Source of the DNA: Escherichia coli
GTDB taxonomy: Bacteria > Pseudomonadota > Gammaproteobacteria > Enterobacterales > Enterobacteriaceae
Direction: 5' to 3' (one strand)
Assembly: GCF_045037415.1 (NCBI RefSeq)
Contig: NZ_CP173438.1
DNA: 64,000 bases
Part shown: one piece after another, positions 39,001-42,000 of the stretch
Layout: the number at the start of each line of letters is the position of its first letter
How positions within the stretch are numbered: position 1 is the first letter of the stretch
Made by a program: the position numbers

Positions 39001-42000
39001 ATGAACCCGGTGTGGCCTTCACCTCCACCCGTGCGGCACGGGAATGGCTGATTCTGAACATGGCGGGACTGGAGCGTGAAGAATTCCGGGTGCTGTATCT
39101 GAACAACCAGAATAAGCTGATTGCCGGTGAAACCCTCTTCACCGGCACCATCAACCGCACGGAAGTCCATCCCCGGGAAGTGATTAAACGCGCCCTGTAC
39201 CACAATGCCGCTGCCGTGGTACTGGCGCACAATCACCCGTCCGGTGAAGTCACACCCAGCAAGGCAGACCGCCTTATCACGGAACGTCTGGTACAGGCAC
39301 TGGGCCTGGTGGATATCCGGGTGCCGGACCATCTGATAGTCGGTGGCAGCCAGGTTTTCTCCTTTGCGGAACACGGTCTGCTTTAACCCGTCACCGTTAC
39401 AACCACATCATACCTGTTTTCGCTTTTATCTTCTGTCTTCAGAGGTATCACACTATGAAAATCATCACCCGTGGTGAAGCCATGCGTATTCACCAACAAC
39501 ATCCGGCATCCCGTCTTTTTCCGTTCTGTACCGGCAAATACCGCTGGCACGGCAGCACTGAAGCGTATACCGGTCGTGAAGTGCAGGATATTCCCGGTGT
39601 GCTGGCTGTGTTTGCAGAACGCCGTAAAGACAGTTTTGGCCCGTATGTCCGGCTGATGAGCGTCACCCTGAACTGAGTCAGGAAGGGCATTCTGATGAGC
39701 CGAATTATCGCCACCATCGAACCATTCTTAACTGATTTCTGTGAGGACTTTATCGTGTCAGACACACTGCCCGGGACAACGCATCCCGACGACAATCACG
39801 ACCGCCCCTGGTGGGGGCTGCCCTGCACCGTGACGCCCTGTTTCGGGGCACGTCTGGTGCAGGAGGGTAACCGGTTGCATTACCTTGCCGACCGTGCCGG
39901 TATCAGAGGCCGGTTCAGCGACGCGGATGCATACCACCTGGACCAGGCCTTTCCGCTGCTGATGAAACAACTGGAACTCATGCTCACCAGCGGTGAACTG
40001 AATCCCCGCCATCAGCATACCATCACACTGTATGCGAAAGGGCTGACCTGCGAAGCCGATACCCTTGGCAGTTGTGGTTACGTTTATCTGGCTGTTTATC
40101 CGACACCGGCAGCGCCCGCAATCACCGTATAACCCCGGATATCTCCCCTTTATCACCACCTGTTACAGAGAACTTAAGATGAATACATTACCCGACACTC
40201 ACGTACGGGAGGCATCGGGCTGCCCGTCTCCCGTCACCATCTGGCAGACACTGCTCACCCGACTGCTGGACCAGCACTATGGCCTCACGCTGAATGACAC
40301 ACCGTTCGCTGATGAACGTGTGATTGAGCAGCATATTGAGGCAGGGATTTCACTGTGTGACGCGGTGAACTTTCTCGTTGAAAAATACGCGCTGGTACGT
40401 ACCGACCAGCCGGGATTCAGCGCAGGAGCCCCGTCGCAGTTAATCAACAGCATTGATATTCTCCGGGCTCGCAGGGCAACCGGCCTGATGACCCGGAACA
40501 ATTACAGAATGGTAAATAACATTACCCAGGGCAAGCATCCGGAGGCAAAACAATGAAACTGGCCCTGACGCTGGAAGCCGACAGCGTTAACGTGCAGGCA
40601 CTGAACATGGGGCGCATTGTCGTTGACGTCGATGGTGTTAATCTCAGTGAACTGATTAACAAGGTCTCTGAAAACGGTTATTTACTCCGCGTGGTCGATA
40701 AATCCGACCAACACGCAACCAGTACACCACCACCGTTAACAACCCTTACCTGCATACGTTGCAGCACCGCACATATCACGGAAACGGACAACGCCTGGCT
40801 GTACTCGCTGTCACACCAGACTAATGACGACGGCGAATCAGAATGGATTCATTTTACAGGCAGCGGCTATCTGTTACGTACCGATGCGTGGTCATACCCG
40901 GTTCTGCGGCTTAAGCGCCTGGGCCTGTCAAAAACGTTCCGTTGTCTGGTTGTCACACTTACCCGACGTTATGGCGTCAGTCTCATTCATCTGGATGCCA
41001 GCGCTGAATGCCTGCCGGGTTTACCCACTTTCAACTGGTAACCAGGAACAACATGAAATCATTAACCACGGAAACAGCACTGGATATTCTGATTGCGTGG
41101 CTGCAGGACAATATCGACTGTGAATCCGGGATTATCTTCGACAACGATGAGGATAAGACGGATTCAGCAGCACTGTTGCCCTGCATCGAACAGGCCCGGG
41201 AGGATGTCCGTGCTGTTCGTCATCTGCAGCTTCTGCACCAGAACCGGTGAATATCACTCACCATACTTCATTCCCCTGACGCCAGCCTGAATACAGCTGG
41301 CGTTTTCGTCTATAAACCAAAAGGAAAACCGATAATGTCAGACATCACAATCTCCCGTCCGGAAGTGGTCACCGGGCATACGGACGTTATCTGCTCCACC
41401 AGTATCCGACACGTTGTGACGGTACGGAATGCAGCACTGCAACAAACCGAAACGCTTATCCGGCAACTGGCAGAAATCTCAGTGCTGACAGCAGGCATTG
41501 GCGGCAAAACCGCCCTGGACTGGGCGATGAAACAGAATTTTCGCTGTGGCTGCTGGCTGATGGAAAAACCGGAAGCAGCAATGAAAGCCATCACCCGCAA
41601 TCTCGATCGAGAAATCTGGCGTGACCTGATGCAACGTTCAGGGATGCTTTCCTTAATGGATGCACAGGCCCGTGATACATGGTACCGATCACTGGAATAT
41701 GATAATTTTCCGGAAATCAGTGAAGCGAACATTCTGAGCACATTTGAACAACTGCACCAGAACATAGATGAAGTGTTTGAGCGAGGGGTGATCAACGTCT
41801 TCAGGGGACTGAACTGGAATTACAAAACTAATTGCCCCTGTAAATTTGGCAGTAAAATTATCGTCAACAATCTGGTGAGATGGGACCGGTGGGGATTTCA
41901 TCTTATCACCGGGCAACAGGCAGATCGACTTGCCGACCTGGAAAGAATGCTGTATTTGTTCAGCGGCAAACCGATTCCTGACAACCGGGAAAACATAACC

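Follow-up and report, generated by a model that had tools for sequence, protein, structure and literature searches.

The window analysed here is a stretch of 64,000 nucleotides of Escherichia coli (contig NZ_CP173438.1, assembly GCF_045037415.1), and we believe that it very probably carries one intact CbeA/CbtA (YeeU/YeeV) pair, a type IV toxin-antitoxin system of Escherichia. This is the best explanation of what is found there, including the boundaries of both genes and the origin of a 145-residue open reading frame (ORF) that extends the antitoxin gene upstream. The pair is an already known system, annotated in RefSeq, and this is an ordinary copy of it. What our analysis adds is an account of where the misleading longer ORF comes from, together with a small question about a leader ORF. 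The CbeA/CbtA family is present in 4956 of 5426 complete E. coli genomes, with a median of 3 copies per genome; a tblastn search found no second copy of the pair within the window. Among complete E. coli records, 344 carry the 1.7-kb segment of this locus with at least 99% identity, and in many complete E. coli chromosomes the segment is 100% identical.

A first-pass annotation had already proposed a pair of this known family, with an antitoxin that starts on a GTG and a toxin whose start lies inside a longer listed frame. The alignments to YeeU/YeeV, YfjZ/YpjF and YafW/YkfI have now been run and do not place the homologous start anywhere else, so the proposal stands. The features that matter for it are these:

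39743..39747, plus strand: Shine-Dalgarno (SD) sequence GAGGA of cbeA, 7 nt before the GTG, duplex energy -5.9 kcal/mol
39755..40132, plus strand: cbeA/yeeU-type type IV antitoxin gene, GTG start, 125 residues, TAA stop at 40130-40132; PF06154; WP_015953067.1
40133..40178, plus strand: intergenic spacer of 46 nt, in which the toxin ATG is preceded only by AGAGAA (40167-40172), a weak SD-like sequence
40179..40556, plus strand: cbtA/yeeV-type toxin gene, ATG start, 125 residues, TGA stop at 40554-40556; PF06755; WP_001094436.1

The pair and its start codons

The family assignment is borne out by Pfam, with both matches far above their gathering scores. For the antitoxin, CbeA_antitoxin (PF06154) scores 183.8 bits where the cutoff is 27 (E 9.3e-55) and is matched from position 1 to position 100 of its 101; for the toxin, CbtA_toxin (PF06755) scores 206.4 bits where the cutoff is 25 (E 9.2e-62) and is matched over all of its positions 1-112. 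None of the NCBIfam hidden Markov models matches any of the four proteins tested, so the RefSeq protein names must stem from other rules. RefSeq annotates two coding sequences in the E. coli genomes S88 and THO-003, which are 100% identical here, and these convert exactly to 39755-40132 and 40179-40556 of the window (6356-6733 and 6780-7157 of the S88 locus, L001). The gene order and the start codons of both genes uphold membership in the known family, and the RefSeq boundaries are the same as ours.

The antitoxin gene begins on GTG 39755, which is followed by TCA GAC ACA CTG CCC GGG ACA ACG and so gives the (M)SDTLPGTT N-terminus that had been claimed for it; the frame reads (M)SDTLPGTTHPDDNHDRPWWGL... 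from there. The Pfam match begins only at residue 38 of the 145-residue frame. To see how the start behaves among relatives we scanned metagenome contigs with a DNA pattern taken entirely from coding sequence, immediately downstream of the start codon. We obtained 120 loci in this way, far more than from a scan of genome contigs, which gave 12 loci only. The metagenome loci, together with K-12, S88 and the genome-scan loci, include 125 that could be scored, and the homologous start codon is GTG in every one of them, across 47 distinct 100-nt upstream contexts. The SD sequence before it is just as constant: its mean energy over 48 distinct contexts is -5.91 kcal/mol, and all but one lie between -5.6 and -6.5. 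Both the GTG and its SD are invariant in the fused alleles described below as well. In E. albertii an in-frame deletion of 12 nt directly follows the GTG (SDTLP----DDNH), which is consistent with the stretch after the GTG being coding. On these comparisons it is highly probable that the antitoxin is translated from GTG 39755 behind GAGGA, and that this GTG is the conserved homologous start. It is true, as was first noticed, that there is no ATG at this position. It is important to realize, however, that K-12 cbeA also starts on GTG, so this is the normal state of the clade and no anomaly of the window.

One locus, L007, does have an ATG at the homologous antitoxin start codon; it falls outside the 125 because its upstream sequence is too short to score. 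L007 also belongs to a group of five (L005, L006, L007, L009 and L016) in which E. coli-like cbeA contigs turn up in assemblies labelled Lachnospiraceae, Collinsella, Arthrobacter or Mesorhizobium. These contigs are short, of low coverage and 89-96% identical, and they are most likely contamination or mis-binning. More distant CbeA relatives start 13-16 residues before a conserved PWWGL motif. The sole plausible start is a TTG behind a perfect TAAGGAGG in a Raoultella metagenome-assembled genome (L011), Pectobacterium betavasculorum (L012) and Limnobaculum allomyrinae (L015); the Kosakonia arachidis homologue starts on ATG. Taken with the GTG of the Escherichia YeeU clade, these TTG starts mean that non-ATG starts recur across the family.

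The toxin start was likewise correctly placed inside the listed frame. The ORF list opens the toxin at TTG 40065, for 163 residues, and the homologous start is ATG 40179, whose product begins MNTLPDTHV. TTG 40065 falls within cbeA, and an SD sequence before it is practically lacking (-0.2 kcal/mol). The ATG of M(K/N)TLP is kept in every related locus that has a toxin, and the nearest in-frame stop upstream of it lies anywhere from 78 to 219 nt away among relatives, so conservation as coding sequence does not extend upstream of the toxin ATG. The spacer between the two genes comes in two types among relatives, 46 nt as in the window or 76-89 nt as in K-12. The SD of ATG 40179 is weak, at -2.9 kcal/mol, close to the median of the window. 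Sequence comparison thus makes a strong case that translation of the toxin begins at ATG 40179, with a weak ribosome-binding site in front of it.

The closest characterized relative is the K-12 CbeA/CbtA pair of CP4-44, which has the same order and flanks: RadC/JAB, DUF987, antitoxin, toxin and YeeW/DUF5983. The window antitoxin is 91% identical to K-12 CbeA/YeeU, which aligns from residue 1 of the GTG product, and the toxin is 85% identical to K-12 CbtA/YeeV, the two N-termini aligning at M(N/K)TLP. In both loci the cbeA GTG is preceded by an SD sequence, AAGGA in K-12, and the toxin stop overlaps the ATG of the next gene. There are differences as well. The antitoxin ends ...TPAAPAITV (125 residues) in the window and ...TPEMKN (122 residues) in K-12, the spacer is 46 nt as opposed to 88 nt, and toxin residues 6-15 differ, including Cys15 in the window versus Arg15 in K-12 CbtA. 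The leader ORF is fused in frame in the window whereas it is separate in K-12, and the DUF5983 gene is full length in the window whereas it is truncated (yeeW) in K-12.

A solved structure is also close to the antitoxin. PDB 2INW, a YeeU homologue described as a 'putative structural protein', matches residues 22-145 of the 145-residue frame (E 4e-83) with 5 visible differences over 124 aligned residues; it has 125 residues before its tag and the same ...AAPA-TV tail as the window antitoxin. Its chain and that of 2H28 (E. coli YeeU) both begin at (M)SDTLPGTT. Since the design of these constructs followed annotation, what they establish is that the 125-residue form folds and not what the native N-terminus is. 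The other two K-12 pairs, YfjZ/YpjF (CP4-57) and YafW/YkfI (CP4-6), belong to the same Pfam families and have the same gene order as the window pair. The antitoxin is 64% identical to YfjZ and 61% to YafW, and the toxin is 66% identical to YpjF and 58% to YkfI. YfjZ and YafW start on ATG, in place of the GTG of the window, with an N-terminus 14 residues shorter, and for that reason they are unable to define the antitoxin start. Their spacers are 20 nt, against 46 nt in the window, and YpjF and YkfI are without the C-terminal 12 or so residues that the window toxin has.

The upstream ATG and the T run

The ORF list does extend the antitoxin frame upstream, as the first-pass annotation said, to ATG 39695 and a length of 145 residues (39695-40132, open throughout). 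The features of this upstream segment are:

39680..39687, plus strand: SD-like purine-rich tract AGGAAGGG for the upstream ATG, -7.0 kcal/mol, spacing 7 nt
39695..39754, plus strand: in-frame upstream extension MSRIIATIEPFLTDFCEDFI, from a 16-codon leader ORF joined to cbeA by a 1-nt deletion
39736..39738, plus strand: T run, TTT here versus TTTT in most relatives, whose length determines whether the leader ORF stands alone or is joined to cbeA

A pairwise alignment shows the window to be short of one T in this run relative to K-12, and there is a gap column at the same place among 57 distinct sequences. In TTTT alleles the ATG equivalent to 39695 opens a 16-codon ORF, MSRIIATTGPFL(A/T)DFL*, in another frame, and its stop (TGA, TAA or TAG) overlaps the cbeA SD sequence. 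The 145-residue frame exists because the 1-nt deletion joined this leader ORF to the antitoxin gene. The state of the upstream ATG across the 125 loci is as follows:

Separate 16-codon ORF, frame +1, stop at -13: 47 of 125 loci
Fused in frame (TTT), as in the window: 16 of 125 loci
In frame but stopped at -27 (L102, a TTT allele): 1 of 125 loci
Absent (ATG changed to AAG, or another upstream segment): 61 of 125 loci

The pattern of substitution points the same way. When 57 distinct 700-nt sequences are aligned, variation by codon position is 0.040/0.032/0.082 in cbeA and 0.019/0.011/0.094 in DUF987, with the third-position excess of coding sequence. In the extension it is 0.068/0.045/0.064, with 8, 7 and 3 variable sites, so there is no third-position excess and no coding-type pattern. 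No part of the region varies more or is richer in indels than the stretch before the upstream ATG; the SD-like tract is nonetheless kept in nearly all variants, with a mean of -6.05 kcal/mol. Judged from these sequences, the 145-residue frame is a lineage-specific artefact of a single-base deletion (TTTT to TTT) and not an ancestral protein, and the comparative evidence favours the 125-residue antitoxin over the 145-residue form.

Even so, the upstream ATG is a good one by the standards of the window. Over all NTG codons in it the median anti-SD duplex energy is -2.4 kcal/mol and the 10th percentile -5.8, which puts ATG 39695 in about the top 5%. If the mRNA includes this ATG, ribosomes probably initiate there. 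In TTTT alleles, initiation at this position would give a 16-residue peptide ending on the cbeA SD sequence; in the TTT allele of the window it would read through into cbeA and give a 145-residue protein.

Some other observations concern this segment. In 34 checkable related loci (for example L108 and L109) there is a 37-codon ORF (MFRHPENEYDWLSSDAAVDEVLLINEYTFTEAGLRAG*) between the DUF987 stop and cbeA. It begins on the DUF987 stop (TGATG), and its frame runs on to ...SFTDFL* at the stop that overlaps the cbeA SD, with TGC in place of the first TGA in some variants. This suggests, from the sequences compared, that the 16-codon leader ORF may be the remnant of a longer small gene. Proteins of 191-214 residues that bear the name 'antitoxin of toxin-antitoxin stability system' share a 90%-identity cluster with the 145-residue form; presumably they come from other alleles, in which cbeA is joined to a longer stretch upstream or was called wrongly. 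An RNA element in the spacer between DUF987 and cbeA was considered and rejected, as a single-sequence fold is no better than shuffles (z +0.77); RNAalifold on 34 distinct spacer variants gives small hairpins only, and Rfam has no family in this spacer or 5' region. A promoter scan of 38300-41400 found fewer promoter-like sites than in shuffles and none on the plus strand before cbeA, and the terminator-like matches in the same interval all lie within coding sequence.

Predicted activity and other explanations

What the pair would do is read by homology from the K-12 proteins, the antitoxin being 91% identical, and is putative for this allele. K-12 CbtA binds the H6/H7 loop of FtsZ, which F65S abolishes, and the flat face of MreB, which R15C abolishes, and it blocks division and elongation independently (PMC5624674). 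Phe65 is needed for FtsZ binding in CbtA, YpjF and YkfI, and R15C in K-12 CbtA changes lemon-shaped cells to filaments (PMC5624674). CbeA binds FtsZ and MreB and promotes their bundling without binding the toxin (PMC5624674, PMC5371832), and YafW, YfjZ and CbeA each neutralise all three K-12 toxins (PMC5371832). By analogy, the 125-residue toxin of the window would bind FtsZ and probably MreB, so that division and elongation would be blocked, and the 125-residue antitoxin would counteract this not through contact with the toxin but by attaching to filaments of FtsZ and MreB and bundling them. Residue 65 of the window toxin is Phe (...DAVNF65LVEKY), so FtsZ targeting is expected by analogy. Residue 15 (codon 40221-40223) is Cys and not the Arg15 of K-12 CbtA. 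This is no bar to membership in the CbtA/YeeV family: YpjF and YkfI share both Cys15 and Phe65 with the window toxin, their Cys15 is natural, and YpjF binds MreB nonetheless (PMC5624674).

Several points weigh against an intact, ordinary pair made from GTG 39755 and ATG 40179. The SD sequence of ATG 39695 is at least as good as that of the GTG (-7.0 as against -5.9 kcal/mol), and because the ATG is in frame in the TTT allele, some 145-residue product is plausible. Both forms of the antitoxin have been deposited publicly, each on at least 1000 contigs. There is no cbeA, yeeU or yeeT entry in the supplements of an E. coli Ribo-RET small-ORF study or of a 2026 N-terminomics study. Since R15C abolishes MreB binding in K-12 CbtA, Cys15 makes MreB targeting by the window copy uncertain, and the toxicity and neutralisation of this allele are putative, resting on the analogy with K-12. 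One could go further and argue that the antitoxin of TTT alleles is made mainly or substantially as the extended protein from ATG 39695, so that the boundary in the ORF list is the functional one. ATG is also a stronger start codon than GTG, the fusion is common to 16 loci and not peculiar to one, and the SD-like tract persists through an otherwise variable region. We consider this unlikely. The extension owes its frame to a missing base in a T run and does not vary as coding sequence does, in 108 of the 125 loci the ATG either lies in another frame or is missing, and one TTT allele is stopped within the extension. Meanwhile the GTG and its SD never change, and both RefSeq and the PDB constructs use the 125-residue form.

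The same upstream segment could instead be a functional leader that tunes cbeA by termination-reinitiation or by occlusion, a control that would be lost or altered in the window allele. The position of its stop over the SD sequence in 47 loci invites the idea, as does the persistence of SD-like tracts before the ATG despite indels, and where the upstream context is of a second kind, this frame again ends ...TDFL* at the same stop codon. However, the peptide itself is unconstrained, its variable sites falling by codon position as given above. The second base of the ATG is changed in about 14% of distinct sequences of the DUF987 context, and the ATG is absent in 61 loci altogether. The K-12 annotation has no small protein between yeeT and cbeA, the Ribo-RET supplement has no match, and the predicted RNA structure is not significant. 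A functional leader therefore seems to us quite unlikely. It could also be said that the island is decaying and that the pair is an inactive leftover in it, without toxin-antitoxin activity in this strain, since ISEc10 splits a DUF4942 gene nearby, a DUF932 gene of the window carries a frameshift, no more than a fragment of the integrase is left, and the K-12 homologues are transcribed at a low level (PMC5371832). Decay of the pair itself is very unlikely in our opinion: both ORFs are full length with starts, stops and SD sequences intact, the antitoxin is very close to a solved structure, the FtsZ-binding determinant Phe65 is conserved, and the 1.7-kb segment is kept nearly unchanged in the 344 records mentioned at the outset.

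Genomic setting and significance

The pair sits in a module of a P4-like island that is degraded and has a choline-utilisation microcompartment cluster on one side and cadCBA on the other. The order of the module is antirestriction, RadC/JAB, DUF987, cbeA, cbtA, DUF5983, DUF957 and DUF4942, and the antitoxin lies directly 5' of the toxin on the same strand in S88, THO-003 and all three K-12 prophages, as it does here. The immediate neighbours are:

39455..39676, plus strand: DUF987 (YeeT/YkfH/YpjJ-like) gene directly upstream of the pair, PF06174, E 2.1e-39; annotated as DUF987 in S88 and THO-003
40553..41041, plus strand: DUF5983 (full-length YeeW-like) gene, PF25638 E 1.4e-31, PF19419 E 3.4e-22

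The DUF5983 ATG overlaps the toxin stop (ATGA), as it does in most relatives, so this gene is probably translationally coupled to the toxin; its SD sequence is the strongest of the module, at -9.5 kcal/mol. According to a 2023 survey, CbtA/DUF5983 is the 'partner' arrangement that is most widespread among the sequence types of E. coli (PMC10790755). The functional unit may be three genes rather than two.

From 30000 to 50000 a single missing base, at 37757, is all that sets the window apart from E. coli THO-003 and Ecol_AZ146. There the window has one T fewer than THO-003 (GCTGCGTCTGCGG versus GCTGCGTCGCGG), within a DUF932 gene at 37501-38318, and the loss splits this 272-residue gene into ORFs at 37501-37776 and 37788-38318. 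Either the frameshift is genuine or an error was made in sequencing. ISEc10, an IS21-family insertion sequence on the minus strand at 42094-44345 (istB 42094-42849, istA 42846-44345), lies inside the DUF4942 gene. The 5' part of that gene is at 41335-42045 and a 3' remnant, annotated in THO-003 beyond the insertion sequence, at about 44436-44597; the gene is intact in S88, at 846 nt. The window contains no tRNA gene that would mark the attachment site of the island. It does contain a second, unrelated toxin-antitoxin pair on the minus strand, of type V by the THO-003 annotation, with GhoT (57 residues) at 55861-56034 and GhoS (98 residues) at 56062-56358. The sole Rfam match in the window is an ALIL pseudoknot on the minus strand at 24285-24401 (117.6 bits), the programmed-frameshift element of an IS3-family transposase annotated correspondingly in THO-003.

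The relevance of these results is mainly one of annotation hygiene. Calling the longest ORF gives a 145-residue antitoxin and a 163-residue toxin, and the 145-residue form has spread in public databases beside the 125-residue form of RefSeq. There is also a more speculative side. It is conceivable, though we think it improbable on the sequences at hand, that the YeeU clade has a translated 16-codon leader, and that the change between TTTT and TTT switches between a separate leader, with GTG translation coupled or occluded, and a 145-residue antitoxin. If this were true, alleles would differ in the dose or the proteoform of the antitoxin, and so in the ease with which the toxin is released. Transcription of the K-12 pairs is autoregulated by neither toxin nor antitoxin (PMC5371832), and in a system of this kind the polymorphism of the leader ORF and its T run could bear on the ratio of antitoxin to toxin.

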